This document shows, in pieces, positions 3,202-42,982 of a stretch of 64,000 bases of DNA (position 1 is its first letter; each line of letters opens with the position of its first letter). The position numbers and the translations under genes were made by a program. Source of the stretch: Candidatus Binatia bacterium (GTDB lineage Bacteria > Verrucomicrobiota > Verrucomicrobiia > Limisphaerales > UBA8199); assembly GCA_035566895.1 (NCBI GenBank), contig DATMQA010000088.1, positions 1 to 64,000 of the forward strand. The letters run 5' to 3'. The notes below the pieces were generated by a model. That model saw only the letters and a list, made by a program, of their open reading frames with translations, did no database searches and was not told the origin of the DNA.

Positions 3202-3222
3202 AGAGTTGCAAAACTAAATGAC

Positions 3223-3972
3223 TTGAGCACCGAAAACCCAACTGCAGCCACCGGCGCGCCGCGCGACGTCTTCGCCACCACTCATTGGACGGTGGTGCTG
3301 GCCGCCGGTCGCGGCAGGTCGCCCGAGGCTGAAGTTGCTCTGGAGGAATTGTGCCGGACGTATTGGTTCCCGCTCTACGTTTACGTTCGACGCCAAACGC
3401 CCACGCGCGAAGATGCGGAAGACCTGACCCAGGCGTTCTTTGCCCGCTTCCTGGAAAAGAATTACCTCGAAAAACTCACCAGCCAAAAAGGGAAATTCCG
3501 CGCTTTTCTCCTGGCCGCGCTGAAGCATTTTCTGGCCAATGAGTGGGACCGCGCCAGCAGGCAGAAGCGCGGAGGCGGTGTGGCGCCTCTCTCACTGGAT
3601 TGGCAGGACGCTGACGCGCGCTATCAAATTGAGCCGGCCGATAATCTGAGTCCCGACAAACTCTATGATCGCGCCTGGGCGGTGACCCTGCTGGAAAGGG
3701 TGCTGGCTCGCCTGCGCGATGAGAATGCGGCGGAAGACAAGGCGAGGTGCTTCAAACAATTGAAAGCGTTCCTGATGGTTGGCACGAACGCTATCCCCTA
3801 CGGCGAAGCCGCCGGCAGACTCAACTTAAGCGAAGGCGCGGTGCGGGTCGCCGTTCATCGCCTGCGGCGGCGCTACCGGGAGCTGCTCCGTGAGGAAATC
3901 GGCCAAACCCTCTCCGACGCCGCTGAAATCGCCGAGGAGATGCGGACCCTCTTTAGCGCCTTCGCCAATTGA
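3223..3972 (+). CDS. ECF-type RNA polymerase sigma factor (STK-associated Planctomycetes/Verrucomicrobia type)
   Basis: TTG start 22 nt after the kinase stop. N-terminal 'TTHWTVVLAA' motif. Sigma-70 region 2 (YWFPLYVYVRR) and region 4 (LNLSEGAVRVAVHRLRRRYRELL). Confidence 0.85.
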   Translation: MSTENPTAATGAPRDVFATTHWTVVLAAGRGRSPEAEVALEELCRTYWFPLYVYVRRQTPTREDAEDLTQAFFARFLEKNYLEKLTSQKGKFRAFLLAALKHFLANEWDRASRQKRGGGVAPLSLDWQDADARYQIEPADNLSPDKLYDRAWAVTLLERVLARLRDENAAEDKARCFKQLKAFLMVGTNAIPYGEAAGRLNLSEGAVRVAVHRLRRRYRELLREEIGQTLSDAAEIAEEMRTLFSAFAN

Positions 3973-4787: not shown

Positions 4788-6788
4788 ATGAAGAACAGGT
4801 CGTTTCTTGGCCCAGCTCTGGCGGTGCTGTGCCTCCTCGCCGGTCCAGGACGGGAGGTTCAAGCCGCGCCGGCTCCCAGCGACCAGGCGGCGCAACCCGG
4901 GACCTTCTTCAAAAGCTCCAAGCCATACACGCGCTGGTGGTGGTTCGCCTCCGAGATCAGGAAAGAAGACCTCGACGCGCAGTTGGAATGGCTAAAGGAT
5001 AACAATTTCGGCGGCGTCGAGATTGCCTGGCTCTACCCGCCTCGGCCCAAGGTCTGGGCCAAGCTGTTCAGCCAGTTGAGTCCCGAGGAAAAGCAGCGCC
5101 GGACCCAGGCCGCCAAGTGGCTCAGCCCCGAGTGGTCGGCGCTCGTCGCCTACGCCAAACAGAAGGCCGACAGCCTGGGACTCGGCTGCGACTTCACCTT
5201 CGGCAGCGGGTGGCCATTTGGCGATACCGGCGTCACGAAAGACGAATCGGTGCAAATATACGGCAAGCCGGACTTTGAACAACGCATCGAAAGGATCTCC
5301 TGGGAGCTGCCCGCCAAACCGCTCGTCTTGAACCATCTCGACCATCGGGCCTTCGCGCACTATGCCCAGCGGATTGGCCAAGCGCTGGCCCCTGCCCTGG
5401 CGGGCTCGCGCAGCGGCCTGTTCTGCGACTCGTGGGAGGTCGAGACGCACGGCTTGTGGACGCGCGGCTTCGGCGAGGCGTTCAAAAAGAAATTCGGCTA
5501 CCATGTGGAGCCCTTCATGAGCCGCCTCTACGACCGCGATAGCGGCGACGTCCGCTACGACTACATGAAGCTGCTGTCGGATTACGTCATCGAGGAGTTC
5601 TACCAGCCCTTCGCGCGGACCAGCCACGAGCTAGGGGCGTTCTCTCGCGTGCAAGCCCACGGTTCGCCGACCGACCTCATCAGGGCCTATGCCTTGTTTG
5701 ACGTGCCGGAAACCGAGGCGATGCTTTTCGAGCCGCCGTTCGGCAGGATCGCGGCCTCGGCCGCCGCCCTGGCCTCGCGCAGGGAAGTCAGCGCGGAGAC
5801 GTTTACCTGCTTGTACGGATACGCCCGCGAGCACCACGAGGAAGAACAGACGGCCGACCTCAAGCTCGTCGCCGACGCCATGTTCGCCAACGGGGTGAAT
5901 CAAATCGTCTGGCATGGCACGCCGCTTAGCTACAAGGACGCCGGGCACGACAGCGAATTCTACGCCACCGTGCATGTCGGGCGCGAAGGCGCGCTGGCCA
6001 AGGACCTGGCGGCCTTCAACGCCTACATGGAAAAGGTCTCCGAGTTCATGAAGCGGGGCAGGACCTTCTCGGATATCGCGGTGTACCTGCCGTTGGAGGA
6101 TTCCTGGGTGACGGGGGAATATCCGAAAGGACTGCAAATACCCTGGGGCGCATCGGATGCCTTCGAACTGCGCGACGCCCGCTTTCCGGACGAGTTGAGG
6201 GGGTATCATCCGTTGTGGATCAACCATGAGTTTTTGAAACGCGGGGCGATGGAGGGCCGCCGCCTGCGCGTCGCAGACCTGACTTTTTCGATGCTCTATG
6301 TGGATGCTTCCTATCTGGACCTGGAAACGCTCGGCACCATCTTGCAGGTTGCCAAGGCGGGACTGCCGCTCTGTCTGAAGTGCGCACCGAAACAGGCCGG
6401 CCGCATCAAGTCAAATGCGTTCGCTGCACAGCTCAAGAAGCTTCGCTCACTTGCGAACGTCTCTTCCGACCTCGGAACGGTCGTCGCCAGCAAGCCGCTG
6501 GTTGCCGGCGAGGATCTCCCGGATTACTGGGCCCGGGTGGATAAGGGCGAGGTTATCATCTTTTTTGCCCACCCGATGACGCGAGACCTCCGGCTGCCCC
6601 TGCGCTTCGGACAGTCGTTCACAGACCAGGAGCTGACGCGCGATGTGACCCTGGCGGCCGCCGGACGCTCGCTGCCGCTCAAGCTGGTATTCAAGCCGTA
6701 CCAATCGCTCTTACTTAAGCTGGATAAAGGGGGGCGTGCCGAGTTCCAGGACATCCCGTACCAACCTCCACCGGCAGTGCCTTATTGA
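4788..6788 (+). CDS. Secreted putative glycoside hydrolase (signal peptide; GH106/alpha-L-rhamnosidase-like N-terminal 'YTRWWW...GGVEI' signature)
   Basis: Signal peptide MKNRSFLGPALAVLCLLAGPGREVQA. 666-aa ORF with strong GC3 bias. Family assignment is by memory of the RWWW motif only. Confidence 0.6.
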   Translation: MKNRSFLGPALAVLCLLAGPGREVQAAPAPSDQAAQPGTFFKSSKPYTRWWWFASEIRKEDLDAQLEWLKDNNFGGVEIAWLYPPRPKVWAKLFSQLSPEEKQRRTQAAKWLSPEWSALVAYAKQKADSLGLGCDFTFGSGWPFGDTGVTKDESVQIYGKPDFEQRIERISWELPAKPLVLNHLDHRAFAHYAQRIGQALAPALAGSRSGLFCDSWEVETHGLWTRGFGEAFKKKFGYHVEPFMSRLYDRDSGDVRYDYMKLLSDYVIEEFYQPFARTSHELGAFSRVQAHGSPTDLIRAYALFDVPETEAMLFEPPFGRIAASAAALASRREVSAETFTCLYGYAREHHEEEQTADLKLVADAMFANGVNQIVWHGTPLSYKDAGHDSEFYATVHVGREGALAKDLAAFNAYMEKVSEFMKRGRTFSDIAVYLPLEDSWVTGEYPKGLQIPWGASDAFELRDARFPDELRGYHPLWINHEFLKRGAMEGRRLRVADLTFSMLYVDASYLDLETLGTILQVAKAGLPLCLKCAPKQAGRIKSNAFAAQLKKLRSLANVSSDLGTVVASKPLVAGEDLPDYWARVDKGEVIIFFAHPMTRDLRLPLRFGQSFTDQELTRDVTLAAAGRSLPLKLVFKPYQSLLLKLDKGGRAEFQDIPYQPPPAVPY

Positions 6789-7130
6789 GCCTGCCTTTCC
6801 TAAGCTGACATTAGCCGGGGAGCCGGGTGGGGTAAGGGTGCCTTGGCAAAGCCGGTAAGCCAAGCAGTGAGAGTTGACAAAGCTACCGCTGCCAGACGAG
6901 CGCCGACACGGCGGGGGACCTGAAAGAGAATTGGGTGGATGAGATCACAGATAGTCGAGGTGTTTATGCCGATCCGTTTGGCCAAGGCGGTGTGCTGCTA
7001 GGTTACTGGGTCGGCGTTCCGCCATTTCGCCATTATGGGAACAAATGCAGATTAGCAGATCCCCTTGTATTTTCAACTCCGATGCTGCCTGCCCCCCGAT
7101 GGTGGCGACTTTACGTCCGGTGCTTTTCGC

Positions 7131-8753
7131 TTAGGGCACTCGCAGCGTATAAAACTGCCGCAGGCTCGTTCCGATGGCGTTCGTGAAGGAGAATTTGCCG
7201 TTGGTGTCAAAACTCCCGTTCGTCAACACCACCCAGTTGGTGCGCGGCAATAGCAGGTTCGTCGAGATCAACACGCGATACGTGCCGCCCGGACCGCTGT
7301 TGTTCGTCCCGCTCAAGATAAAAGTTCCGCCGCTCACCGCAACGCGCTGGATCGTCGGCGCCGACAAAATGGAGGTGAAGGTAAACCTGTCCGCCGCTGT
7401 CAGGGCCGAGGTTCCATAACCAAAAATGGGCGCGTTGACATTGGCGTTGGGATTGCTGCTGATGTTGTCCACTTCGTTAGTGCCCGATTGAACCTTCACA
7501 TCCACCGTCCCGGAACCGCTGGGAATTGTCACCGAGATCTGGGTGTCGCCGAGCACGTTGACCGAGCCGGCGGCCGTGCTGCCAAAGAGCACCGACAGGC
7601 GCCCCGCCGCGCCCGAGAAGTTCTGGCCCTGAACGGTGAGAGCGCTGCCGAGCGGACCGTTGGCTGCGCTCAAGCCGGTCACGATGGGCATGAGGTTGAC
7701 AACGTCGAAATTGGTGGCCTGCAACTGCCTGATACCATTGAGGACATCGGTCATGTCCCAGGTGAGGCTGATGCCGTTGGTGGCGTTCACCGAGGCGGAC
7801 GCGCCCGTGACATACATGGCACTGCCGACATCCGCGAGGATGAGGCCGTATTGCTGCATGGCCCGGGCAAGGCTCTGAGACTGAGGACCCATCGTGCTGA
7901 TCAAAGCGTTGACGGCCGGCGTGTTCTTCAGGCGCAATCGGCCGCCAAAAGGCAAATTGGTGGCGCCCTGCGAAGTCGAAACTATGTGCGAGCCGGGAAA
8001 AACGTATTGTGGGTTAATATCGCCGGCCGGCAAGGTCATGCGCAGGGCGTGGTTGATGGCGCCCTGGCCTCCCTGCGCCACAGTCAACCCCTCATCGGGC
8101 CGGGCCAGTCCGGCCAGGATCGACAGTCCCGCGGCGTCCGCGGACGTCTCGCCGAGAGTGCGGAAGCTGTTCGCGTTAAAGTTCCAGACGGTTTCCTGGG
8201 CTGCGTGCCACTTGCCGTCCGTATGAGGAAGTTCAACGCCGCTCGTATTGGGAAACAAGGTCGTGTCGGATGGACGGGTCACCCCATACAGCTCAAAGCC
8301 GATGTTGTTGTCCTCGTCCCAAACGATCAGATGCGAGTCGCCGCGTTGACCCGTGTTGTAACCGCCCCCGTTGGGATTTGGTCCGTTTTGGTAATCGCCT
8401 TCAATTACGGCATTCGCCGGAATCGGCACCCCGACGATGTCACTTTCACCGGGATAATTGTCGATGATGACATTGATCTTCGTAGTGCTGTTGCCGTGGA
8501 CCACGTTGAAGGGAATCCCGTACAAGGGGCTGGCCCCATTGGAAGCACTATCCGCGCCCCAATCGGGGTGGATATGGATCGAGGAGCCGATGTGGGCGAT
8601 GATAGCTGCCGAATTCGTCGCCACTGGCGCGTTGCTGATGTCCTGGTTCCAGGGATAGTTCGTTGGATAGAGCTGGTTCCCAAGCAACGAAGCCAGTCCC
8701 GAGTGGACGGGCGTCAGCGCTGCACCTGTCGCCAAGGCCATCAGGCGCTTCAT
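7131..8753 (-). CDS. Secreted protein with IPT/TIG-like Ig domains and C-terminal '...FYTLRVP' sorting-like domain
   Basis: Start chosen at the internal ATG giving signal peptide MKRLMALATGAALTPVHSGLAS. 'LTVQGQNFSGAAGRLSVLFGSTAAGSVNVLGDTQISVTIPSGSG' IPT-like segment. C-terminal domain shared with two other proteins in the window. Confidence 0.75.
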   Translation of the reverse strand: MKRLMALATGAALTPVHSGLASLLGNQLYPTNYPWNQDISNAPVATNSAAIIAHIGSSIHIHPDWGADSASNGASPLYGIPFNVVHGNSTTKINVIIDNYPGESDIVGVPIPANAVIEGDYQNGPNPNGGGYNTGQRGDSHLIVWDEDNNIGFELYGVTRPSDTTLFPNTSGVELPHTDGKWHAAQETVWNFNANSFRTLGETSADAAGLSILAGLARPDEGLTVAQGGQGAINHALRMTLPAGDINPQYVFPGSHIVSTSQGATNLPFGGRLRLKNTPAVNALISTMGPQSQSLARAMQQYGLILADVGSAMYVTGASASVNATNGISLTWDMTDVLNGIRQLQATNFDVVNLMPIVTGLSAANGPLGSALTVQGQNFSGAAGRLSVLFGSTAAGSVNVLGDTQISVTIPSGSGTVDVKVQSGTNEVDNISSNPNANVNAPIFGYGTSALTAADRFTFTSILSAPTIQRVAVSGGTFILSGTNNSGPGGTYRVLISTNLLLPRTNWVVLTNGSFDTNGKFSFTNAIGTSLRQFYTLRVP

Positions 8754-8933
8754 ACGGCGTCTTTCTCGTCGCATTTTTCTCGAAACGTTGTGCCGGCATT
8801 GAAGCCCCCCAAGCACACGAAAGGGGACCGGCGCTCACACTCCGGGGCCGGCAGACGATTTCCCAAATGATACTCCCAAGGTGCAGGCTCATCCAATGAA
8901 ATTCTACGCAATACTGACTTCAGGGCGGTCAGG

Positions 8934-10373
8934 TCAATGGTCCAGGTTCCGTTGCCCCGCGGTTCTTTCCAATTTCTCAAGCCTTAACCTCAAGGCTTCA
9001 ATCTCGGCGTCCTTGGTTTTCACTTGCGCTTCGAGTTTTTGATTCAGTCCCTGAATGGCGGTCAGAGCGACGCCGCCTTCATCGACAATGCCGATGGTCG
9101 TGTCGCTGGCACCGAGACCAAAGGTTGCTTTGAAATCCTGCGCGGTCGGGCCGAGATGGCGGATATTTGGGACCTCGTTGGTGAAACGCCAGCTTTGGAT
9201 CGGCAACGCGACCAGCCTCGCCAGAATATCCTCCGGATTGACCCCGAGGAATCCGGTCTTGATGTTGCGGTCCGAACCGAGGGACGAGGAAATTATTAAA
9301 GTGTTGCCGTTGGTGCCGATGGTGACGCCGGTGCCGGCTGCTAGAATGACTCGGTCGCTTAATCCGTTGAGACTGGTCACAGCCTGGCCCGGTGAAAGGT
9401 CGGCCACGACACCGGCCGAGTAGGCGTAAAGCGCCTGGGGCGTCGGCGTGATGGGCAACGGCGGGGTGAGCGGAGTGAAACTGTTACCGTTGGGTGGCAT
9501 GACCGACATACTCAGCCAAAGCGGGTTGCCCATAAAAATGGTGGGGTTGAACGGCAACGGTGTGGTGAAAAGACCATTGACCACTTTCACCGCCTGGGTG
9601 ACCAACAAGCTTACGGGCAGGCCGTTGCTCCCGTCCAGCAGTTGGAAGGTAAAGTTGTACAGGCCGTTGCTCGGCGGCAACATGGGAATCGAATTGCAAG
9701 AGATGTTGCCCTGGAAACTCGGAAACGGCACTGGGACCGAATACGGAAGCTGGACGGGGTAGGCCCAATCCGGCGGCATGTCCGGCACGATGGCGGGAAC
9801 ATTGACGAGGGTCTCGTGGGCCTGGTTATTGCCATCCGTCCAGTCGTCGATGATGGTCAAGGTACCATTTTTTGGCTGTGTGTCCGAAAGCATTCCAAAG
9901 GTCGTGGCCGTCTTTCCGGGGGAAAGACAACCGGCACCAAACAGAAAAGTGACATCGCCCAGCGGCGTCAGTGTGCCCGAAGACACGTTGACAGTGCCGG
10001 TTCCATTGGTGAGCACGAGCACATCGTAGGTGCAGCTCAGCGGCCGGCTGAAATGGATCAAGAGTTTGACACAATGATTGGCCGCCACGGACATGCCGCT
10101 CAAGTCCAGGGAATAAACGTAAAAGACGTGGTCTTCCAAACGGACATTGTCAGCCTTATAGGACGCGACGCTGGTGACGACGCCGATTCCGGAAACCCCA
10201 GTCAACGTAAAGCTGTTGCTGGTGGTTAGGGGAGCTGGAACCAGCAGTGAATCGTCCCAGCATGGGCCGCCGGGAATGATGAGGGTCACATCGCCGACGG
10301 TCAACGAGCTGTTGGCACGCGTGGACGCAGCCACGCACGCGACGAGAAGAATTTGAACCAGGTATTTATTCAT
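8934..10373 (-). CDS. Secreted fibre-like protein with C-terminal intramolecular chaperone (peptidase S74 / tail-fibre chaperone-like) domain
   Basis: Start at internal ATG (10373) giving signal peptide MNKYLVQILLVACVAASTRA. C-terminus 'SDRNIKTGF...IRHLGPTAQDFKATFGLGASDTTIGIVDEGGVALTAIQGLNQKLEAQ...' followed by a coiled coil. Confidence 0.8.
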   Translation of the reverse strand: MNKYLVQILLVACVAASTRANSSLTVGDVTLIIPGGPCWDDSLLVPAPLTTSNSFTLTGVSGIGVVTSVASYKADNVRLEDHVFYVYSLDLSGMSVAANHCVKLLIHFSRPLSCTYDVLVLTNGTGTVNVSSGTLTPLGDVTFLFGAGCLSPGKTATTFGMLSDTQPKNGTLTIIDDWTDGNNQAHETLVNVPAIVPDMPPDWAYPVQLPYSVPVPFPSFQGNISCNSIPMLPPSNGLYNFTFQLLDGSNGLPVSLLVTQAVKVVNGLFTTPLPFNPTIFMGNPLWLSMSVMPPNGNSFTPLTPPLPITPTPQALYAYSAGVVADLSPGQAVTSLNGLSDRVILAAGTGVTIGTNGNTLIISSSLGSDRNIKTGFLGVNPEDILARLVALPIQSWRFTNEVPNIRHLGPTAQDFKATFGLGASDTTIGIVDEGGVALTAIQGLNQKLEAQVKTKDAEIEALRLRLEKLERTAGQRNLDH

Positions 10374-10411
10374 TGCTAAGTCCTTTCTCCAGGGAAGTTG
10401 TTCGTCACCGG

Positions 10412-10936
10412 CTAATGCCCGATGGTGGACGGGCCAAAAACCGATGTGATGGTCATCGGCTTTAAAATCGTCATGGTTTCGGTCGAATCGCTGGGTTGCA
10501 CACTGGCATTGAGGGCGATGGTGCCGCCGCTGGCCACGGCGCTCACGCCATTGGCCAGGGTGTTGTAGGGCTGGGAGTAGGTGCCAAAATAGAAGCCGAA
10601 GGGGCTGGAGTAATTGAAATCTACCCACACGGGGCCATAGAAGGTAACCGGGTCCGAAGAGATGCCATTGGCGATAACCCGCAGCGCGAACGTGCCCGGT
10701 GCATTGAAGACATTTGAGGGGATGGTCACCTCAGTGGTGACCATCCGCCCGCCGGTTTGCACGCTGGTAATGCTCCAATTGTAGGTGGTCCCGCAGGAAA
10801 CATTCCCCCCGCCGTCGGTGAAGGTGACAATGGGAAAGTTGCTGTCCATCTGAGCGTCGTCGCGGTAAGCGGCGCCAGAGCTGCAACCTTGTGCACAACT
10901 GCCGATTTTACCGGAGTTTTGCATGGGAGGTTTCAT
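10412..10936 (-). CDS. Hypothetical protein carrying conserved N-terminal 'MKPPMQNSGKIGSCAQGCSSG' leader (no classical signal peptide)
   Basis: ATG start. The first ~60 nt are ~85% identical to the start of the 11439..13811 gene, and the differences are synonymous. Confidence 0.7.
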   Translation of the reverse strand: MKPPMQNSGKIGSCAQGCSSGAAYRDDAQMDSNFPIVTFTDGGGNVSCGTTYNWSITSVQTGGRMVTTEVTIPSNVFNAPGTFALRVIANGISSDPVTFYGPVWVDFNYSSPFGFYFGTYSQPYNTLANGVSAVASGGTIALNASVQPSDSTETMTILKPMTITSVFGPSTIGH

Positions 10937-10976
10937 TGTTTGTTTGCCTTTCTCTTGGACGGTGCTCCGCTATTCC

Positions 10977-11426
10977 TCACGGGTTCATCAGCCGGAAAAA
11001 CCATTTGCCCGCTGGTTGAGTGAGGGTCAGATAATTCGTTCCGTTGCTGTTGGTGACGCCGCTGCTGGCCGACCAGCCGGCGGCTGCGGTAACGCTGCTG
11101 TTCTGCTGCAAGCTCCAGCTCGCAACGGCTTGCCAGTAGACCGTCACCGAATTGGTGCCTCGGCTGATGTAAAGGAGCGGCGCGCCCGGCGTTTGCACCG
11201 GCGCAATCAACGCCCAAAATCCGCCCGTGACTGAATAAGAGCCACCGGTCATCGGCCCGCCGGCATCGTGTTGGCCGATGGTGCCGCTGACCGCGTACGT
11301 TCCGCCGGTGCTGTTCATGCCACCGCCACCGGAGACTTTGTACCAGTCAATGCTGTAGCTTTGGGCGGTCGCGCGAAGGCACAGGGTAAAAGGCAAAAGG
11401 CACAAAAGAATGAGTTTGTATTTCAT
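10977..11426 (-). CDS. Small secreted protein ('SIDWYKVSGGGG...' N-domain plus shared C-terminal '...WFFRLMNP' domain)
   Basis: Signal peptide MKYKLILLCLLPFTLCLRATAQS. 12-bp gap to the upstream gene. Confidence 0.75.
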   Translation of the reverse strand: MKYKLILLCLLPFTLCLRATAQSYSIDWYKVSGGGGMNSTGGTYAVSGTIGQHDAGGPMTGGSYSVTGGFWALIAPVQTPGAPLLYISRGTNSVTVYWQAVASWSLQQNSSVTAAAGWSASSGVTNSNGTNYLTLTQPAGKWFFRLMNP

Positions 11427-11438
11427 GGTTATGCTCCT

Positions 11439-13811
11439 TCAATTTGACTTTTGGTTGCGAATGATGTTTTCCAGTGATACGAGTCGTTGTTGCAACGCCG
11501 CGTTTTCCGCGTCGCGGCGTTTCAATTCCTCCCTGAGCCTGGTGTTTTCGGAATCCACTTTCTGGTTCAACCCCTGAATCGCCGCCAGCGCTACACCTTC
11601 CTCGTCCACCGTGGCAATATGTTTATCGTCCAGGCCGACATTGAACGCCGCATAAAAGTCCTGCGCCATCGGGCCGAGATGGGGTGTGGCCAAATCGTTG
11701 GTATAATGCCAGCGCGTGATGGGCATCGCGGCCACCCGCTCCAAAACGGTCTTCGTATCCACCGGCTCGAACCCCGCCTTGACGTTCCGATCGCTGCTGC
11801 TGACAAAGGTGCCGCGCACCGTCAGGCCGGCACTGTCCAATAACAGCATGGTTGCGCCGATGGACCCGCTGTAGATGACAAAATTCGTCGTGGTCGCCCC
11901 CACATCCCATCGTTTGTTTGCATTCCCTCCAACCGTAAAGCGCAGTCGCGAAAAATCCGACGCGGTTTGCTGATCCAATTGCGCCTGTGGGAAGGAGTTG
12001 CCGCCGCTGCTGGTGACGTGCAGTTGCGCCTGCGGGTGATTCGTACCAATGCCGACACCGCCGCCGGCGTAAACCAGGAACTGGTTGGGTGCGCTCGAAC
12101 TGAAAGGGTACACTTCGCCATCCGACCAGATAAAGCAATCGTCATTCAGAGCCTGAGCGCCATTACCTGCCGCAAAGGAAGCAGCACCTTTGGCAACATT
12201 ACCCGCGCCGCCTGGCACCACCGCAGAAGCGCCGCTGGCAGTGTTGCCGTAGCCGCCGCCCACGGTCCCCTGTTGGCTGCTGGCGGTATTGTTATAGCCG
12301 CCGCTGACTGTCGAGTAATCCCCGCTGGCGGTGTTTTGGGTGCCCCCTCCCACCGTCGAGTAGCCGTAGCCCGTTCCGCTGGCCGTGTTGTAACTCCCCC
12401 CGCCCACGGTCGAGAAGCCAGAGGTTGGGATGCTGGAAGTGTTGTAGTAGCCTCCGGCCACGGTAGAGGCTTGGCCAATGGCGGCGTTGTGGTATCCACC
12501 GGCGACAGTTGCCATCACACCACTAGCGGTATTTTGAGCGCCACCGCCCACCGTGGTGTCATTGAGCGAGGCGGTGTTGCCAAACCCGCCCGCTACCGTC
12601 GCGTAGCTGAAACTGGCGGTGTTGCCGTAGCCTCCTCCCACCGTGGTGAAGCCGTAATGCCCCCCGCTGGCGGTGTTGCCAAGGCCGCCGCTAACCACAG
12701 ATGCATCGCCGCTGGCTACGTTCCCGGCGAAAATCCCGGCGCCATAACCGCCACCCCCGACGAACGAGCCGGAGCCGGTCGCAGAGTTCGAAACCCCGCC
12801 GCCCACCGTCGAATAACCGAGCAATGGCGTCGTGTAATAGTTATCCGAGCCGCTGGCAAGGTTGCCGGAGCCGCCGCCCACCGTCCCAAAGTCCGCGACT
12901 ACACTGTTGGTGCCGGGGCTGCCGAAATAATTGTTGGCACCGCCGCCGGCAATAGTCGCGCCATACACGCCCGCACCTACGGAATTGACCGCGGCACCAC
13001 CCGCCACGTTGACGATGCCTGAGTGGTTTGCATCATTGGCCGTCGGCTCCAGCCGCAAGGCACGGGTGCCGTTGATGTGCAATTCCAACGGTTGATAGTC
13101 CGTCGTGCCGACAAAGTTGCCATTGGTTGCGCTGGTGCCGGCGTTGCCGGCAATTTGCCAGGCGTTGCCCAACGCCGCCGCCGGCACGGTTCCGGTCGTC
13201 AATTGCGACGCGTTCAAGCCGGTCAACCCGCCGCCGTTGCCATTGAAACTGTCGCCTGGATTGGTCAGGTTGACCGCGCCGCCGTAGGTGCCACTGAGGC
13301 TCGCCGCCGGAATGGTCCCGCTTAGTCCCGCCGCGCTGGCGCCTTCGGCGAAAATGGCATAAGGCGTCGGCGTCAACTGCTGGCGCGGACTCAAGACCTT
13401 GAACGCTCCGACGTTGTTGGTCCGGACGGCGATTTGCAGCCAATAGGTGGTGCCGTCAAACACGCCGCCATAATCCAGCGTGATGGTAAACAGGCCGTTG
13501 CTCACCGCCACGGCCGCATTGGTAATCGGCCCGGCAAAAACAGTGCTGCCGGTACTAGTGAGATAAAGGCCAACGCGAATGTCGTAAAGGCCGTTGGCGG
13601 GATTGCCGCCGTCGTTTAGCTCGCCTTGATAGGTGAACGCAGTGCCCTGGGCTCGGACGGTTGAGGGTTGGCCAAAGAGCGTTGAGATTAACGCCACCGC
13701 CAGGACCGCACAGCGGGGAACGCCGCCGAACCGCCCGCCAGAGCTGCAACATTGCGCACCACCGCCGATTTTACCTGAATTTTGCATGGGAGTAACAACC
13801 ATGGGTTTCAT
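11439..13811 (-). CDS. Large secreted fibre/adhesin-like protein: conserved 'MKPMVVTPMQNSGKIGGGAQCCSSG' leader plus signal-like h-region, ~20 YadA-head-like Gly-rich repeats, C-terminal intramolecular chaperone (S74-like) domain
   Basis: Start placed at the internal ATG 13811. Repeats 'STVGGGxxNTASG'. C-terminus 'SDRNVKAGFEPVD...HLGPMAQDFYAAFNVGLDDKHIATVDEEGVALAAIQGLNQKV' followed by a coiled coil. Confidence 0.8.
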   Translation of the reverse strand: MKPMVVTPMQNSGKIGGGAQCCSSGGRFGGVPRCAVLAVALISTLFGQPSTVRAQGTAFTYQGELNDGGNPANGLYDIRVGLYLTSTGSTVFAGPITNAAVAVSNGLFTITLDYGGVFDGTTYWLQIAVRTNNVGAFKVLSPRQQLTPTPYAIFAEGASAAGLSGTIPAASLSGTYGGAVNLTNPGDSFNGNGGGLTGLNASQLTTGTVPAAALGNAWQIAGNAGTSATNGNFVGTTDYQPLELHINGTRALRLEPTANDANHSGIVNVAGGAAVNSVGAGVYGATIAGGGANNYFGSPGTNSVVADFGTVGGGSGNLASGSDNYYTTPLLGYSTVGGGVSNSATGSGSFVGGGGYGAGIFAGNVASGDASVVSGGLGNTASGGHYGFTTVGGGYGNTASFSYATVAGGFGNTASLNDTTVGGGAQNTASGVMATVAGGYHNAAIGQASTVAGGYYNTSSIPTSGFSTVGGGSYNTASGTGYGYSTVGGGTQNTASGDYSTVSGGYNNTASSQQGTVGGGYGNTASGASAVVPGGAGNVAKGAASFAAGNGAQALNDDCFIWSDGEVYPFSSSAPNQFLVYAGGGVGIGTNHPQAQLHVTSSGGNSFPQAQLDQQTASDFSRLRFTVGGNANKRWDVGATTTNFVIYSGSIGATMLLLDSAGLTVRGTFVSSSDRNVKAGFEPVDTKTVLERVAAMPITRWHYTNDLATPHLGPMAQDFYAAFNVGLDDKHIATVDEEGVALAAIQGLNQKVDSENTRLREELKRRDAENAALQQRLVSLENIIRNQKSN

Positions 13812-13964
13812 AGCGTTCACTCTGTCCTCAGTGCGTTGTTTCGCGGGAAAAAATATCAGCCCTCGGAAGTATTTTTGGAGGTTGAAACCAGGCCCCCTGG
13901 TATTGCCGCCCCGAAGGCGAACTCTCATCAACACCGTGGCTTCTCCGCGCTGCGGAATTCCGTG

Positions 13965-16900
13965 CTACGGCTCTGCGGTGATGGCCACGAGGAAGGGCTG
14001 GCCTCGAGTCGGTTTGTCCGACACAAAGTCGAACTGGCGTATGGGCACGTTTGGGAAGGGGTTTTCCCAGATAGTTTTGAACAGGCGGATGGCGTGGCCA
14101 CCGCGCCGGGCTGCTGGATTACTGCCGGCCCAGGCCAGGACGAAGCTCATGGGTTGCTCGTTGGGTTGAGTCCACCAATCGGCCATGTCTTTGCCGGTGA
14201 CGATCGGCAGTTCGACCTGGCGGCCATCGGCATAATGGAAGATGTAACTGCCAAGTTCGTCACCCGGACGGGCGCCGGCAGCGAGGATAGCGGCGTGCAG
14301 GAAATGCAGGTGCCGGCACTGCCGGCGGATCGGAATGTCCAGCACGTGGCTGGGATATGCCAGGCCGTTGGGGGCGCTCACCCCGATCTGGATCAGGCCG
14401 CGAACATCAAACTCAACCCCGCCGAATTTCTGCACGCCTCGCCGTAGTTCAGACAAGTTATTTTCCGCCGCTTTTGCGCTATGCCAGCTCTCGGTCAGCG
14501 GCGCGTTGTAATAGTCGGTCAGGTCGATCAAATTTGCGGCGGTGTCTGGGTCGCGGGGCGGAATGGTTTGTGCCAGTTCTTCCTTGCTGAAGGGACCTGC
14601 ATCCAGTTGCAGTACTGCCGGCCCGGTGGGCGGAGCATCGTCGGCGGCAGGAAACGGCGGGAGGCCCCAGTCCAGGTTCAACTTCATGAGTTCTTCCCCA
14701 ATGAAGCGCAAATCCCAAACATCGACCTGGCCGCTCCACTCGAAGGCGGCGAGCTTGGCGCCATCGGGACTGAAGCTGAGGCAACCGACGTGCGCGACCG
14801 TGGGCACTCGCAAAGTGGCCACCGGCTCACAGGTTGGGACCTTGAGAAGTTGAATCTCATAGGTCGCATGAACTGCCGCGAGCAGGCGGCCATCGGGGCT
14901 GAACGCCAGCGGATTGATTTCGGAGACCCGGTCGCCAGCCACGGATTGCGGCGAGGCTTCCCACGAGCCGGTTCTCCAAAGCTTCAACACAGTCATGTCG
15001 GCGGCGGCCAGCCAATGGCCATCAGGACTGAAGGCAACAAAAGCTGTGCCCCTGGCGGGCAGGCTGCGGATGAGTTGGCCGGTCGATACGTCGTACACCT
15101 TGACGCCTGTGCCCTTCCAGGTGCCGGTGGCAGCCCAGCGGCCGCCGGGATCAAAGGCGACGAATTGAGCGCCCGGATGGCCGCGCAGCTTGAGTATATT
15201 GGTCGGATTGTCCAAGTCCAACAGCAGTGGCTCATCCGTAACTTCCCTCGAAGCGAGGATCTTTTTGCCGTCGCGATCCAGCGCTGAGTAGCGAAACAGT
15301 TGATGGGCCATCAGGATTTGCGGGGCTCCGACGCGGAGGAACGAGCCGCGGGCCGTGGACTGGACCTCAAGGGGCCACCGGTAAAGGCCATCCGAAGTGC
15401 TCCCCAGAATGCCCAGCCCGCCATAGGTTTGAAAATGCGCCGAGCGGCAGGTGGCGGTGGGGATCAGACCGATTTGCTTGCCGGCGATCAGATCCCAGAA
15501 CCCTATCCCGCTGACCGTGCTGACGGCCACGAGGCGCCCATCTGGAGAGAAGTCCGCGCTCCACGGCCTGGGAGTTTCCGCAGGGCCAACGAGCCGCCGA
15601 TAACCGGTGCTATGAGCCACTTCGAGCAGCTTCGTGGTTTCACCTTCAACTGCGCACGCCAGTGTCCGGTCATCCGGACTGAAATGGAGTTCCGCGTCTT
15701 GGCTCTCGTACTCCACCAATTGCCGGCCCCTCGCGACATCCCACAGGCGCAGCGTATTGTCCCAACTCCCGCTGGCCAGCAAGTCGCCCTGCTGCGAAAA
15801 GGCTAGGGCCGTCAACCGCGCCTCATGGCCTGCCAGGCGAGCCTGCAGGCGCCCGGTCTGCGCCTCCCAAACCTCAATCTGGCCATCGAGTCGGCCGGTT
15901 GCCAGCAGAGCCCCATCGTGGCTCCAGGCCAGGAAACTCAGCTTGCCTGGCGATAGCAGGCTGGTGATGAGCTGGCCAGAGGCCAACTCCCAGATCCGCA
16001 CCGTCGAGCCGCCAAACTCCAGACCCGCCAGCCGCGTGCCGTCGGGGCTGACCCGCAGCAGACCGAGCTTGCCCTCGACGCGTAACCGCTTCAGGTCTTT
16101 CCCCGACTCAATCTCCTTAACCGAGACAGTGTCATCCGGATTGATGACCAATATCTCCTGGCCGTCGGGACTGAAATCCGGGTAGGCGCTACTGGCGAGG
16201 TCGAGCGCCAAGGCACCGCGACGGGTGAGGTCCCAAACCCGGCAACGCCACCCTCCGTTGGTGGTCAGGCAGGAAGCGGCCAGATAGCGACTGCGGGGGT
16301 CAAACCGGCGGACGATGAGCCCATTGGCAATATCACTGACGTCTTTCACGGGCAGGAAGTTTACCTCCTGGTCGTCCGCGACGCGCCGCACACTGAAGCC
16401 GGAGAGAGTTCGGTAAGCGTACAATTCGAAGGCGGTATCGAAGCACACGTTTTGAGCAGCCCAATGCGAAGGAAACCGCCAGCGCTTTTCTTCGCGCAAA
16501 TCCGGCAAGCCGAAGGCCGCGACGGCCGCCTCACTCAGGTCGGTCGAACGGTGAATCACTGCTGCCTTGCTGAGCGCTTCGAGACTTTCGAAACGTTGGC
16601 CGGCACGGCCGCTGAACTGCTTGGCGCGCGCTTCGCCCAGCAGAGCGTTGTAAAGGTGCTCTTCGGCTGCCGCCCGCTGTTTGGCTTCGCCGGTTCGAGC
16701 TCGCTCGGCCTCCTCACGCAGGCGGCCTTGTGCTCGCTCGGCCCGCCGCGCCCGGATCGCCTCCCAAGTACTCCCCGTCGTTCCCAGGACCAGCGCCAGG
16801 ACCACGGCGCCGGCGGCCGCAAAAGCAAGTTTGTTCCGGCGAACAAGTTTCTGGAATCGATACAGGTTGCTTGGGGGGCGGGCCACCACGGGTTCACTCT

Positions 16901-18188
16901 TCAAATGCCGCTGCAGGTCCATGGCCAGACCATTGGCGGTTTCATAACGCCGCGTCCGGTCCTTTTCCAGGCACTTCATCACGATCCAGTCCAGGTCCCC
17001 GCGGAGAACATTGATCAGCTCCTTCTTCTCGAGCAGCCGACGCGAGGACGCTCCACTCACCTCGGCTGTTTGGTTTTCGTTCTGTGGCCAGCCCCTCCCT
17101 AATCGGGCGGGCGTCTCGCCCGCGGAGGACTGCAGGCCAGAGGCCGGCGCCACTGATGCAGCGCTTAAGCCATTGGGCTCCGGCTTTGGACCGCGCTTTT
17201 CCCGCTTCGCGGGTTCCGCCCGTGCAAGTTCCAGGGTAAGCCGGGTGGAAGGGCGGAGCGGTTCTTTCTCTCGTATCGTTCGTCGCATCTCATCCAGCCC
17301 GGCCGACAAGAGTTCTTTCGCGTCAAACGGGGTCGTGCCGGTGAGTAATTCGTAGAGCAACACTCCGAGCGAGTAGATATCGGTACGGGTATCCACGTCC
17401 AGTCCCCTCAGTTCGGCCTGTTCCGGGCTCATATAGGCCGGAGTCCCGACGAACTGCTCGAACGACGTGAAGAGTGTTTGATCCGTCAATCGCCCCTCCG
17501 TGGCCTTGGCAATCCCAAAATCGATCACCTTGGGCATGGGCAGGCCGTCGTGAGCGGTCACCAGGACATTCGAGGGCTTGATATCGCGATGAATGATGCC
17601 TTTTTGGTGGGCATGCTGAATCGCCCGGCAGGCCTGCATGAACAGGTGAATCCGTTCCGCGGTCGAAAGATCATTCTCCTCGCAATAGTCGGTTATCTTG
17701 ACCCCCCGCACCAGTTCCATGACAAAGTAAGGCCGTCCGGTGTGGGTCGTGCCGGCGTCGAGAACCTTGGCGATGTTCGGATGGTCCATCAGGGCCAGCG
17801 CTTGGCGTTCCGCTTCGAACCTGGCTACCACCTTCTTGGTGTCCATGCCCAGCTTGATGACCTTGAGCGCCACCCGGCGACGCACAGGCTGCTCCTGTTC
17901 GGCCATATAAACCACACCACAGCCGCCTTCGCCAATTTGCTGGAGCAGTTTGTAATGGCCGATGCGGTCACCTGGCTTTTCTGCAATCAGGCCCCCGACC
18001 GCTTCCTGGCGAGGTTGTTCGGGCAGAATACCTTCACCTGTCTCATGGGCCTGGAGCAAGGCGCGCACGCGCGCCAGCAGGGCGGAGTCCTGGCCGCAAG
18101 CTCCCACCAGAAAGGCCGCGCGTTCATCGGGGCGAAACTCGATGGCCCGACTGAACAGGGCTTCCAGCCGCTCGATATTCGTACTCAT
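13965..18188 (-). CDS. Ser/Thr protein kinase with transmembrane segment and C-terminal WD40 beta-propeller repeats
   Basis: Start at ATG 18188 (MSTNIERLEALF). Kinase motifs HRDIKPSNVLV, DFGIAK, GTPAYMSPE. TM helix LAFAAAGAVVLALVLG. More than 10 WD40-like repeats (LASGSWDNTLRLWD, ...). Lies immediately downstream of an ECF sigma gene. Confidence 0.9.
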   Translation of the reverse strand: MSTNIERLEALFSRAIEFRPDERAAFLVGACGQDSALLARVRALLQAHETGEGILPEQPRQEAVGGLIAEKPGDRIGHYKLLQQIGEGGCGVVYMAEQEQPVRRRVALKVIKLGMDTKKVVARFEAERQALALMDHPNIAKVLDAGTTHTGRPYFVMELVRGVKITDYCEENDLSTAERIHLFMQACRAIQHAHQKGIIHRDIKPSNVLVTAHDGLPMPKVIDFGIAKATEGRLTDQTLFTSFEQFVGTPAYMSPEQAELRGLDVDTRTDIYSLGVLLYELLTGTTPFDAKELLSAGLDEMRRTIREKEPLRPSTRLTLELARAEPAKREKRGPKPEPNGLSAASVAPASGLQSSAGETPARLGRGWPQNENQTAEVSGASSRRLLEKKELINVLRGDLDWIVMKCLEKDRTRRYETANGLAMDLQRHLKSEPVVARPPSNLYRFQKLVRRNKLAFAAAGAVVLALVLGTTGSTWEAIRARRAERAQGRLREEAERARTGEAKQRAAAEEHLYNALLGEARAKQFSGRAGQRFESLEALSKAAVIHRSTDLSEAAVAAFGLPDLREEKRWRFPSHWAAQNVCFDTAFELYAYRTLSGFSVRRVADDQEVNFLPVKDVSDIANGLIVRRFDPRSRYLAASCLTTNGGWRCRVWDLTRRGALALDLASSAYPDFSPDGQEILVINPDDTVSVKEIESGKDLKRLRVEGKLGLLRVSPDGTRLAGLEFGGSTVRIWELASGQLITSLLSPGKLSFLAWSHDGALLATGRLDGQIEVWEAQTGRLQARLAGHEARLTALAFSQQGDLLASGSWDNTLRLWDVARGRQLVEYESQDAELHFSPDDRTLACAVEGETTKLLEVAHSTGYRRLVGPAETPRPWSADFSPDGRLVAVSTVSGIGFWDLIAGKQIGLIPTATCRSAHFQTYGGLGILGSTSDGLYRWPLEVQSTARGSFLRVGAPQILMAHQLFRYSALDRDGKKILASREVTDEPLLLDLDNPTNILKLRGHPGAQFVAFDPGGRWAATGTWKGTGVKVYDVSTGQLIRSLPARGTAFVAFSPDGHWLAAADMTVLKLWRTGSWEASPQSVAGDRVSEINPLAFSPDGRLLAAVHATYEIQLLKVPTCEPVATLRVPTVAHVGCLSFSPDGAKLAAFEWSGQVDVWDLRFIGEELMKLNLDWGLPPFPAADDAPPTGPAVLQLDAGPFSKEELAQTIPPRDPDTAANLIDLTDYYNAPLTESWHSAKAAENNLSELRRGVQKFGGVEFDVRGLIQIGVSAPNGLAYPSHVLDIPIRRQCRHLHFLHAAILAAGARPGDELGSYIFHYADGRQVELPIVTGKDMADWWTQPNEQPMSFVLAWAGSNPAARRGGHAIRLFKTIWENPFPNVPIRQFDFVSDKPTRGQPFLVAITAEP

Positions 18189-18278
18189 TGCTCGCTCGCC
18201 GCTCTCGTGGAGTAGTGCGCTTTTGAGAAGCAAAACGTCTCAGCCGAACCGCAAAAAACCTGTCCGCCCGCGAGAAAT

Positions 18279-18848: not shown

Positions 18849-19057
18849 GCATAGTTCACCAACGGTTGACGGCTACTCAACGCCAGGGAACACTAATACA
18901 AATATTAGGACACAACCCGTTAGAACACAACCCTTTCGGCGGCAGAAACCTCGGCGCGCATGTCTGATTTTTGAGCTTGCCGACGGCGTAACGCGGATTT
19001 GCATTGGCGTGCTCTGGAGGCTGCGCGAGTGAAGCGCCGGAGGTCAACGCGGTTAAG

Positions 19058-42820: not shown

Positions 42821-42982
42821 GGGCTCAACCTGGCCCAACTCACCTTAAAACAACGTGAAGGGAAGCCGGTTTGCGAAGCTCATTCTTCATCGCCTCTTAA
42901 GGTCCCTCCTGCCACGATAGTACATGGCGAATTGCATTGATTACTGTGCGATTTACCGCCATCTAGAATTGAGGCAAGACCG

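Follow-up and report, generated by a model that had tools for sequence, protein, structure and literature searches.

A probable non-viral surface-fibre cassette with a proposed tether protein and co-inserted sigma/kinase genes in a soil bacterium

The window analysed here is a 64-kb stretch (64,000 nucleotides) from a soil bacterium, probably one of the Verrucomicrobiota. It carries a block of about 10.3 kb in which the gene order is ECF sigma factor, kinase, fibre gene A, partner gene B, gene remnant C and fibre gene D. The block and its flanking genes comprise the following features.

19058-20227, minus strand: DUF4915 gene (PF16261, E 1e-107), upstream partner of E, flanking the insertion and outside the module
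8920-19047, minus strand: inserted block sigma-kinase-A-B-C-D, ~10.3 kb, right edge approximate
18279-18848, minus strand: ECF sigma factor, 189 aa, first gene of the block (Pfam Sigma70_ECF PF07638, E 1.4e-58)
13965-18233, minus strand: Ser/Thr kinase, 1422 aa, with WD40 beta-propellers and an uncharacterised C-terminal domain (Pfam Pkinase, E 8.7e-46)
11439-13811, minus strand: fibre gene A, 790 aa (Pfam, structure and profile searches, AF2)
A, residues 1-54: long signal peptide
13362-13649, minus strand: A, conserved N-terminal AN beta-sandwich, residues ~55-150
A, residues 150-300: low-confidence stalk
12042-12914, minus strand: A, UspA1-head-like beta-roll, residues ~300-590
11607-11795, minus strand: A, S74 module, residues 673-735, with Ser673/Lys678
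A, residues 736-790: coiled coil
13736-13792, minus strand: 57-nt direct repeat, copy 1, over the first codons of A
10977-11426, minus strand: partner gene B, 149 aa (homologue search, AF2 model and fold search)
B, residues 1-21: signal peptide
11211-11363, minus strand: B, conserved Gly-rich module, residues 22-72
B, residues 80-149: FN3/Ig-like C-terminal sandwich, last residues FFRLMNP
10412-10936, minus strand: C, 174 aa, 3′ remnant of a ~580-aa secreted Kelch/galactose-oxidase-like protein, no signal peptide
10873-10929, minus strand: 57-nt direct repeat, copy 2, over the first codons of C
8934-10373, minus strand: fibre gene D, 479 aa
D, residues 1-20: signal peptide
D, residues 21-235: unique domain
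9324-9674, minus strand: D, AN-like domain, residues ~234-350
9087-9275, minus strand: D, S74 module from Ser367/Lys372, followed by a coiled coil
7131-8753, minus strand: E, 540 aa (547 aa possible from ATG 8774), conserved secreted IPT/TIG protein outside the fibre module

The sequence-only reading had taken A to E as one operon of five secreted fibre or adhesin genes. When genes were called independently on the source contig, the same five minus-strand ORFs (790, 149, 174, 479 and 540 aa) came out, and the intergenic gaps are indeed short: 12 bp for A-B, 40 bp for B-C and 38 bp for C-D. The 118 bp proposed before E, on the other hand, apply only to a start at GTG 8816; the called start at 8753 leaves 180 bp and ATG 8774 leaves 159 bp. 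The common strand, the short gaps and the absence of predicted terminator-like sites from the A-E stretch would all suit a single transcription unit. However, E is part of another conserved unit with its own upstream region: its homologues (70-83% identical; TIG domain in E at E 1.6e-9, Pfam) directly follow DUF4915 in four relatives, and a motif upstream of E, GTAGAAT..ATTTCATT, is conserved. Gene C encodes just the C-terminal part of a protein whose family members are larger: its residues 12-173 align with the last ~160 residues of 560-590-aa proteins. It has no hydrophobic signal segment, so secretion is not common to all five proteins. Neither the Kelch/galactose-oxidase-like fragment C nor the IPT/TIG protein E is fibre-like, and homologues of the two were found in 0 of 82 fibre loci. 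We therefore consider the five-adhesin operon improbable.

The DUF4915-TIG pair is split here by the ~10.3-kb insertion. In blastn of a related genome (L093) against the window, homology stops at 19048 and restarts at 8734, the matching gap in L093 being 168 bp; the ECF sigma gene lies inside the segment missing from that genome. The shared motif upstream of E places the block edge near 8915-8934. No tRNA was found at the block junctions. Within the block, A and B are flanked by the two copies of the 57-nt repeat, which are 89% identical (chance expectation, 0 matches).

The prediction of S74 intramolecular-chaperone modules in both A and D is borne out by Pfam Peptidase_S74 (PF13884; cut-off 22 bits), which matches residues 673-723 of A at 36.4 bits and residues 367-418 of D at 31.6 bits. 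The catalytic-type motif reads S673-D-R-N-V-K678 in A and S367-D-R-N-I-K372 in D, and is followed in each by a helical, heptad-like tail of ~55 aa. A profile of the fibre C-termini found the MyRF ICA domain (7dc3, E 1.4e-6) as its best solved-structure match; weaker matches were the fibre of phage S16 (6f45) and phi29 (3gud), with SDRxxK aligned in all three. Foldseek likewise assigned 7dc3 a probability of 1.0. MyRF, a eukaryotic membrane-bound transcription factor, is of interest here for its related fold alone. The N-terminal domain of D is 63% identical to a 487-aa S74 protein that adjoins an A homologue in two loci (L002 and L003). Since the AN-like domain of D stands just before S74 and not at the N-terminus, AN is not strictly a base domain.

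Upstream of its S74 module, A matches the UspA1 head (3pr7, E 9.5e-16), and AF2, whose predictions here are of monomers, models the beta-roll with pLDDT >90 over residues 490-580. As in YadA/UspA1, 14-15-residue GGxxNxAxGxxSTVxGG head repeats form a left-handed beta-roll. Such repeats would suit a trimeric autotransporter adhesin (type Vc secretion), and several automated JGI annotations name A homologues accordingly. A nevertheless has no YadA-type C-terminal beta-barrel to serve as translocator and anchor, and carries the S74 module and coiled coil in its place, so that trimerisation would presumably proceed via S74. The autotransporter assignment is thus refuted at the domain level and is hardly credible.

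Phage tailspikes and fibres are the best-known carriers of S74, and it is reasonable to ask whether A and D might be receptor-binding proteins left behind by a prophage or tailocin that has decayed, with no cellular function of their own. Related S74 ends occur in 74 IMG/VR loci, the block is an insertion relative to kin genomes, it contains the gene remnant C, and the 57-nt repeat hints at rearrangement. Against this, capsid, terminase, portal, sheath, tube and integrase genes were all absent in Pfam scans of the 64 kb (~48 genes), and the sequence-only reading had said as much of all of these but portal; no lysis genes were found in the block or the 64 kb. The junctions lack a tRNA, A has a Sec signal peptide that phage fibres do not need, and the block holds its own cellular sigma/kinase regulators. 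Although the genome and viral locus sets came from different retrieval patterns and the locus counts are phylogenetically non-independent, AN was present in 46 of 78 genome loci versus 2 of 74 IMG/VR loci, and B in 30 of 78 versus 0 of 74. The two viral AN cases sit at contig ends by integrase or Mu-like genes and are thus probably host flank. Fibre relatives lie on chromosomal contigs of up to 2.6 Mb, adjoining housekeeping genes. A chromosomal, non-prophage locus is supported, and a domesticated or decaying tail fibre appears very improbable. The phage S74 chaperones (K1F endosialidase 3GW6, T5 pb1 4UW8, S16 gp37 6f45, phi29 gp12 3gud) share with A and D the C-terminal position, the Ser-Lys motif, the helical tail and the presumed job of folding and then releasing a triple beta-helix or fibre. 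A and D, by contrast, are cellular and Sec-exported, lack a virion attachment domain and stand outside any phage context.

The fibre type of A and D is known already. Its closest characterised system is that of the mosaic adhesive trimeric (MAT) fibres of Bdellovibrio bacteriovorus, which have been studied experimentally and include an S74 subgroup, e.g., Bd3182 (Caulton et al. 2024, PMC10769870). In both systems the genes are chromosomal, and the proteins have a signal peptide, an N-terminal domain that is conserved and rich in beta structure, a long trimeric shaft, also beta-rich (predicted here), and a C-terminal S74 with SDxxxK. Both also have multiple paralogues with mosaic tips; some fibre relatives carry non-S74 tips, e.g., BclA_C/TNF-like domains, which mirror the NS74 MATs. 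The present locus differs in phylum and lifestyle, with no sign of predation, in the YadA/UspA1-head-type repeats of its shaft, and in its partner gene B and co-inserted sigma/kinase pair. Nor is the family rare, as had been implied: in addition to the MAT precedent (PMC10769870), upwards of 7,300 relatives of A were detected in many phyla, all on contigs of chromosomal type and under the name "tail fiber domain-containing protein". According to the MAT study, the element at the cell surface to which the MAT N-terminal domain binds is unidentified (PMC10769870).

The partner protein B is undescribed and new here; the sequence-only reading had passed over this small conserved protein. Over 5,500 homologues share 65-80% identity with it, and a Pfam search with B found no family. 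B lies directly 3′ of the fibre genes in 30 of the 78 (phylogenetically non-independent) genome loci. It follows the S74 gene, 105-354 bp from the S74 domain, in 26 of 46 AN loci versus 4 of 32 non-AN loci (Fisher p = 1e-4, with the same non-independence). At least four phyla (Verrucomicrobiota, Chloroflexota, Planctomycetota and KSB1) have B immediately after AN-type fibre genes, and B also stands downstream of AN fibres without S74. Across the family the Gly-rich N-module is constant and the C-terminus is a lineage-specific sorting domain: the module is fused to the T9SS sorting domain TIGR04183 (E 5e-13 and 9e-10), to a GC-type dockerin and, as seen by eye, to a PEP-CTERM-like tail or short YLPLVLR tails. 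Modelled alone in AF2, the module has pLDDT <50, although no other part of B is as highly conserved. This gene linkage and domain swapping suggest that B may be the cell-surface anchor of the fibres.

Alternatively, B could be a secreted fibre-assembly chaperone, an adaptor at the distal end or a minor pilin-like subunit that joins the fibres to another filament. Its position directly downstream of fibre genes recalls phage Tfa or gp38-type genes, and B also occurs solo in some genomes, including next to a prepilin-like N_methyl gene. B also resembles PamT, the predicted donor-strand-accepting tip pilin, not an anchor, of the CPR Pam pilus, whose operon neighbourhood also holds a "tail fibre-like protein" (bioRxiv 10.64898/2026.03.03.709456). 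Against NCBIfam, the N-module alone found PamT (NF058579) as its sole family, in 5 of 35 members (best E 4.7e-9), with a local match to the first ~100 PamT positions; the window's B reached E 0.0068 with its signal peptide and had no match at E ≤ 0.01 without it. These B-family scores are at most 36 bits versus a family cut-off of 240, and the PamA/B pilins, reported as CPR-exclusive (bioRxiv 10.64898/2026.03.03.709456), and PapD-like chaperones are absent here. Lineage-specific surface-sorting domains (T9SS CTD, dockerin) would be superfluous in a protein that acted purely as a chaperone. Moreover, a single B accompanies each array of one to five fibres and follows AN fibres regardless of tip, which fits binding to the constant N-terminal fibre end. 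We thus consider a non-anchor role unlikely, if worth keeping in mind. B may nonetheless have a more general role, since it occurs solo and its N-module also heads giant DUF11 or tandem-95 proteins; 20 of the 46 AN loci, in the same non-independent set, have no adjacent B.

Paired ECF sigma factors and Ser/Thr kinases form a group exemplified by Vibrio EcfP/PknT and are common in Planctomycetota-Verrucomicrobiota. The pair in the block likewise consists of an adjacent PF07638-type ECF sigma factor and a membrane Ser/Thr kinase with no intervening anti-sigma gene; the kinase differs in its large WD40 propellers, which many propeller models in Pfam match. One transmembrane segment, AFAAAGAVVLALVLG, is predicted, as read off the translation. 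The window does contain the two such pairs that were said to bracket the locus (18848-13965, minus strand; 562-3972, plus strand), but the bracketing is meaningless because the second lies outside the insertion, past a GH106 gene. The proposed control by envelope signals is accordingly plausible for the upstream pair, in the same inserted block, and not for the second. In two further loci, which bring the loci showing this link to three, a WD40-sensor signalling pair lies immediately 5′ of the fibre and B genes and shares their strand: in L015 the order is ECF sigma, STK-WD40, fibre, B, fibre, and in L007 it is WD40 histidine kinase, response regulator, fibre, fibre, B.

We put at roughly 60% the probability of what we consider the best explanation, a non-viral chromosomal surface-fibre cassette with B as the proposed tether and co-inserted sigma/kinase control. 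Given their signal peptides, A and D would be exported via Sec. The C-terminal S74 module and coiled coil would nucleate trimerisation of the beta-rich shaft, a YadA/UspA1-head-like beta-roll in A, and S74 would then cleave itself off, the cut falling at Ser673 in A and at Ser367 in D, as the Ser-Lys motif and homology to the modules of endosialidase, T5 pb1, MyRF and Bdellovibrio Bd3182 suggest. In the mature trimer, the former C-terminal end may be the exposed distal ligand-binding tip, and the end nearest the cell may be the AN domain, whose mature N-terminus, QGTAFTYQGxL, is invariant. Neither fibre carries a membrane anchor itself; the 52-aa Gly-rich module of B may bind the fibre base while its C-terminal domain, here an FN3-like sandwich ending FFRLxxP, would fix B to the envelope. 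Expression would probably be driven by the co-inherited sigma/kinase pair upon a periplasmic signal, the kinase propellers being presumably periplasmic, as the shared insertion, the shared strand and the recurrence in relatives suggest. The fibres probably serve to attach the cell to particles, polymers or other cells.

The DNA between 13811 and 7131 carries five minus-strand ORFs, as the sequence-only reading had described, and gene calls made independently on the JGI source contig (144 kb) give products of identical size for all of them. What that reading took for a five-gene operon is a six-gene cassette, composed of an ECF sigma factor, a Ser/Thr kinase (STK) with WD40 propellers, and A, B, C and D; the finding was real, but its framing was off. 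We consider the core description correct with a probability of about 0.85. The genes concerned are the following:

20227-19058: DUF4915 gene, flanking the cassette
13811-11439, minus strand: A, fibre gene with Peptidase_S74 (S74) module, 790 aa
11426-10977, minus strand: B, small partner gene, 149 aa
10936-10412, minus strand: C, neighbouring ORF, 174 aa
10373-8934, minus strand: D, fibre gene with S74 module, 479 aa
8753-7131, minus strand: E, neighbouring ORF, 540 aa

The intergenic gaps A–B, B–C and C–D measure 12, 40 and 38 bp. The D–E gap is 180 bp with the called start of E and 159 bp with the ATG at 8774; the 118 bp previously assigned to it fits an upstream GTG only.

A relative with 82–85% nucleotide identity to the window (L093, blastn) delimits the insertion. 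Homology stops at 19048 and resumes at 8734; a stretch of 168 bp separates the two homologous blocks in L093, against 10.3 kb in the window. In four independent relatives, E is found directly after the DUF4915 gene, whatever the surroundings. Taken together, the L093 gap and the conserved DUF4915–E pair indicate that ECF sigma–STK–A–B–C–D is an insertion and E an unrelated flanking gene. A motif upstream of E (GTAGAAT...ATTTCATT) is common to L093 and the window, which puts the right edge of the insertion just after the D stop. E has >1,400 homologues (70–83% identity), named “IPT/TIG domain-containing protein”, and the DUF4915 gene followed by a ~540-aa IPT/TIG protein forms a tightly conserved two-gene unit in Verrucomicrobiota-like genomes (the window, L093 and L095). 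The N-domain of D has no Pfam or NCBIfam match, nor does that of E, where it spans ~330 aa. No relatives of C or E occurred in the 82 fibre loci fetched at that point. Residues 12-173 of C align to the last ~160 residues of 560–590-aa secreted Kelch/galactose-oxidase-like proteins, and C has neither their propeller part nor a signal peptide; it is, on this alignment, a 3′ gene remnant inside the cassette. The view that all five products are secreted therefore does not hold.

Two copies of a 57-nt direct repeat (89% identical; 13736-13792 and 10873-10929, minus strand) flank A–B and supply the first ~22 codons (MKP..PMQNSGKIGxxAQxCSSG) of A and of C, respectively. Homologues of A do not carry the N-terminal extension that the repeat encodes; the repeat accounts for the odd N-terminus of A. 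The repeat hints at a recombinational origin: it may be the scar of a recombinational cassette insertion or a shared translation-initiation region, and a Campbell-type insertion of A–B between the two copies is speculation. An exact-pattern scan of metagenome contigs with the repeat core gave 0 matches. There are no tRNA genes near the block, Rfam found no element over 6800-20400 at E ≤ 0.1, and a promoter/terminator consensus scan of 6700-19200 gave counts no higher than shuffled expectation and hence carried no information.

The S74 chaperone call for A and D was confirmed, both C-termini scoring above the curated Pfam cut-off of 22 bits for PF13884 (A, residues 673-723, 36.4 bits; D, residues 367-418, 31.6 bits). 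The Ser-Lys motif of the S-D-x-x-x-K type is present in both (A, S673-DRNV-K678; D, S367-DRNI-K372), its S, D, R and K being invariant over 18 aligned C-termini. A profile built from these C-termini reached the ICA domain of MyRF (7dc3) at E 1.4e-6; weak matches were the long tail fibre of phage S16 and the appendage of phi29, and the motif aligned in every case. At the sequence level, A and D belong to the S74 family, and the fibres are predicted to lose their own C-terminus by self-cleavage. The AlphaFold2 (AF2) monomer model of A has beta-strands to residue 665, an alpha/beta region at 686-723 and one long helix at 735-788, in agreement with the coiled coil that had been proposed to follow S74 (the last 55 residues are a single long helix). 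Foldseek with this model returned 7dc3 at probability 1.0, but with E 0.16 and a target-normalised TM-score of 0.42, and nothing at E ≤ 0.001; monomers of obligate trimers are poor queries.

Upstream of this module, A has a conserved N-terminal beta-sandwich (AN; ~57-147, ~95 aa), confidently modelled (pLDDT 82-90), then a low-confidence stretch and a beta-roll of 14–15-residue GGxxNxAxGxxSTVxGG repeats that matches the UspA1 head (3pr7, E 9.5e-16) and exceeds pLDDT 90 over residues 490-580; S74 and the coiled coil complete the protein. The signal peptide of A is long, and those of its homologues are ordinary, all ending ...AQG|TAFTYQG, a junction with which the signal peptides read from the sequence agree. 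The mature N-terminus QGTAFTYQGxL is nearly invariant among the fibres.

These repeats bring A close to trimeric autotransporter adhesins (TAAs), with which it shares YadA/Hep_Hag-type head repeats, and JGI gives several A homologues that name. Pfam Hep_Hag itself has no match in A and is recorded for two homologues (P0067 and P0115). Pfam YadA_anchor likewise finds nothing in A at E ≤ 0.1, and the C-terminus consists of S74 and a coiled coil; A is not a type Vc adhesin because the anchor barrel is missing. Prophage origin, the other identity suggested by automated names, fails as well. No capsid, terminase, portal, tail tube/sheath, baseplate, lysis or integrase family came up when every called gene of the 64 kb was scanned with Pfam, which bears out the earlier description of a chromosomal, non-prophage locus. 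Fibres of a tailocin, an eCIS or a T6SS are ruled out by the same lack of sheath, tube and baseplate genes. Other window genes are metabolic, regulatory or housekeeping (Ffh/SRP54, MlaDEF, sulfite reductase, gamma-glutamyltranspeptidase, glycoside hydrolases). Elsewhere in the window, a GspD-like protein (41198-42838, minus strand, 546 aa) has N0 and three Secretin_N domains and no match to a C-terminal secretin pore domain at E ≤ 1e-4.

Viral sequences were covered by 74 IMG/VR loci carrying S74 relatives, of which two have AN and none has B; neither A alone nor the B alignment found relatives when scanned against IMG/VR. Both AN fibres lie at a contig end, one beyond an integrase (L097, 7124-12001) and the other beside Mu-like TniB/ParB transposition genes (L100, 2954-11527), and are probably host flank mis-assigned to virus. 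Being nearly absent from viral loci, AN and B are cellular rather than phage features. The automated names “tail fiber” and “trimeric autotransporter adhesin” should not be taken to indicate a prophage or type V secretion.

Relatives of A number at least 7,339 proteins at E ≤ 1e-5 (8,000 candidates scored), and NCBI calls them “tail fiber domain-containing protein”. Scanning a single genome for each species gave 567 confirmed relatives, whose best 78 loci, on contigs up to 2.6 Mb, come from Verrucomicrobiota, Chloroflexota, Planctomycetota, Ignavibacteria, Eremiobacterota, Acidobacteriota, KSB1, Zixibacteria and others. We found no paper on S74 or “tail fiber domain-containing protein” fibres in Verrucomicrobia/Verrucomicrobiota. 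The class of cellular S74 fibres to which A and D belong is very large and annotated but has hardly been studied; its precedent dates from 2024. Among characterised systems, the mosaic adhesive trimeric (MAT) fibre family of Bdellovibrio comes closest: its chromosomally encoded fibres carry a signal peptide, an invariant beta domain at the N-terminus and a trimeric shaft, and end in S74 (SDxxxK, with cleavage shown for Bd3182) or in other tips (PMC10769870). A and D resemble them in signal peptide, S74 tip and chromosomal encoding. The conserved N-terminal domain of MATs, ~130 aa, beta-rich and common to all 21 of them, binds a surface element stated as unknown (PMC10769870); AN occupies the equivalent position in A. 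By analogy, A and D would work like S74 MATs, formal membership hinging on the N-domain.

Partner B is far more conserved than A, with >5,500 homologues, mostly ~147 aa and 65–80% identical to it, none with a Pfam domain or a name; we found no paper describing it. Local HMMs for B, AN and S74, run over the 78 genome loci, revealed a recurrent layout of one to five tandem fibre genes (AN...S74) and then a single B on the same strand, starting 105–354 bp past the S74 domain. Of the 46 loci with AN, 26 have the S74→B pair, against 4 of the 32 without (Fisher p = 1e-4, not corrected for phylogeny). B also follows AN fibres with no S74 tip: L083 (1939-8447) has two consecutive fibre→B pairs whose fibres (886 aa, with a weak BclA_C match, and 825 aa) lack S74, which argues that B tracks the N-terminal domain and not the S74 end. 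This arrangement echoes the non-S74 MATs. B is also found alone in genomes, and hhalign of the B and A profiles showed no relationship (probability 7.7%).

Across phyla, only the N-terminal ~52 residues of B past the signal peptide are conserved (consensus YxLxWxTIDGGGGxSxGGxYxLxGTIGQPDAGxLxGGxYxLxGGFW), and the C-terminus varies by lineage as follows:

C-termini of B homologues by lineage
Verrucomicrobiota: FN3/Ig-like sandwich ending FFRLxxP (AF2 pLDDT 77-94)
One Ignavibacteria MAG and one unclassified MAG: T9SS type-A sorting domain (TIGR04183, E 5e-13 and 9e-10)
Phycisphaerae: GC-type dockerin
One Planctomycetales MAG: PEP-CTERM-like tail, read by eye
Chloroflexota: short tail ...IYLPLVLR/K, read by eye

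The module occasionally stands at the head of giant DUF11 or tandem-95 proteins. B-like ORFs of Chloroflexota (L010, L013, L018, L024, L027, L035, L041, L049, L052, L054 and L067) encode ~60–70 mature residues with a conserved tail, ...(K/R)xYLPLV(L/V)(R/K)xx, that has no transmembrane segment and was not recognised as a known sorting signal. Three secreted proteins of the window, B (10977-11189), E (7131-7360) and an RCC1-repeat protein (22510-23007), end in a small beta-sandwich closing with [FY][FY][RT]L and two or three more residues (FFRLMNP, FYTLRVP and FYRLAE), possibly a C-terminal domain for sorting or attachment that is specific to the lineage. BLASTP of the B and E sandwiches was not significant, and the resemblance of the endings is therefore at motif level only.

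An adaptor that fixes something to the envelope would be expected to show just this pattern of one constant module with exchangeable surface-sorting devices, and the fibres themselves carry no anchor. We tentatively propose, at somewhat less than even odds, that B is the cell-surface anchor of the fibres: B would fix them to the envelope, and the fibre N-terminus would bind its Gly-rich module. That module is the most conserved part of B and yet has an AF2 pLDDT <50, which would be consistent with a fold needing a partner. Foldseek with the B model matched only generic FN3/Ig sandwiches, over residues 80-149, and a PDB sequence search with the module profile returned nothing. The mature strand QGTAFTYQGxL is a candidate donor strand for the module; a specific donor-strand lock between B and fibre is a good deal less probable than the anchor role itself.

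PamT, a CPR pilus protein, is predicted to be a tip pilin whose truncated Ig-like fold accepts a donor strand, and the Pam operon neighbourhood is reported to include a “tail fibre-like protein” (bioRxiv 10.64898/2026.03.03.709456). With signal peptides removed, the B module has a single NCBIfam match, CPR PamT (5 of 35 members, best E 4.7e-9). Membership of B in that family fails: the window B scores 15.8 bits against NF058579 (cut-off 240) and the best B-family member 36 bits, over the first ~100 profile positions alone, so that the similarity is local only. It is possible, albeit unlikely, that B is a cross-phylum anchoring adaptor in the full sense, in which a 52-aa Gly-rich incomplete beta-fold, distantly akin to PamT, would be completed by the fibre QGTAFTYQGxL strand, and the swapped C-terminus would plug into the sorting system of each lineage.

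Directly upstream of the fibre genes, on the same strand and inside the insertion, lie the adjacent and co-oriented genes of the sigma factor (PF07638, E 1.4e-58) and the kinase (Pkinase, E 8.7e-46). In the kinase (1,422 aa), the kinase domain is accompanied by a single transmembrane segment, WD40 propellers and an uncharacterised C-terminal domain, and the pair, an ECF-type sigma next to a membrane kinase, is on domain content of the ECF sigma/STK class. The order ECF sigma→STK-WD40→fibre→B→fibre occurs in L015 and WD40 histidine kinase→response regulator→fibre→fibre→B in L007; a WD40-sensor signalling pair is thus a recurrent, not universal, companion of the cassette. This linkage, within one block here and again in L015 and L007, suggests that the pair may control the fibre genes. 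The sequence-only reading saw the fibre genes bracketed by two such pairs; we regard the second (562-3972), outside the insertion, as coincidental. Upstream of the sigma gene, at ~18905-18933 on the minus strand and just before an AT-rich stretch, GGGTTGTGT(T/C)CTAA occurs twice in tandem, a possible operator or promoter for the cassette. Part of what the locus adds is the physical coupling of fibre genes to a sensor kinase and an ECF sigma factor. The MAG with these exact proteins is labelled “Candidatus Binatia bacterium” at NCBI; labelled relatives of A, B and E are overwhelmingly Verrucomicrobiota, the sigma factor is of the PF07638 type, and the bin may be mislabelled.

In uncultured soil and sediment phyla, phage-type trimeric fibres that cleave themselves appear to be a common organelle of the cell surface (>7,300 relatives). 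Only the Bdellovibrio MATs among such fibres have been investigated, and what holds them on cells is posed as a question in that work (PMC10769870). The cassette travels as one piece together with a sensor kinase and a sigma factor of its own, offering a rare handle on an ECF/STK regulon in Verrucomicrobiota. New here are the cross-phylum fibre→B linkage and the anchor hypothesis that it suggests; the gene pair is a concrete tether candidate, and the sorting domains swapped on B predict its residence. If the fuller reading of B as a cross-phylum adaptor is true, the “unknown surface element” by which MAT-type fibres stay on cells would be B, and its C-termini would provide two new candidate sorting signals, one in Verrucomicrobiota and one in Chloroflexota.
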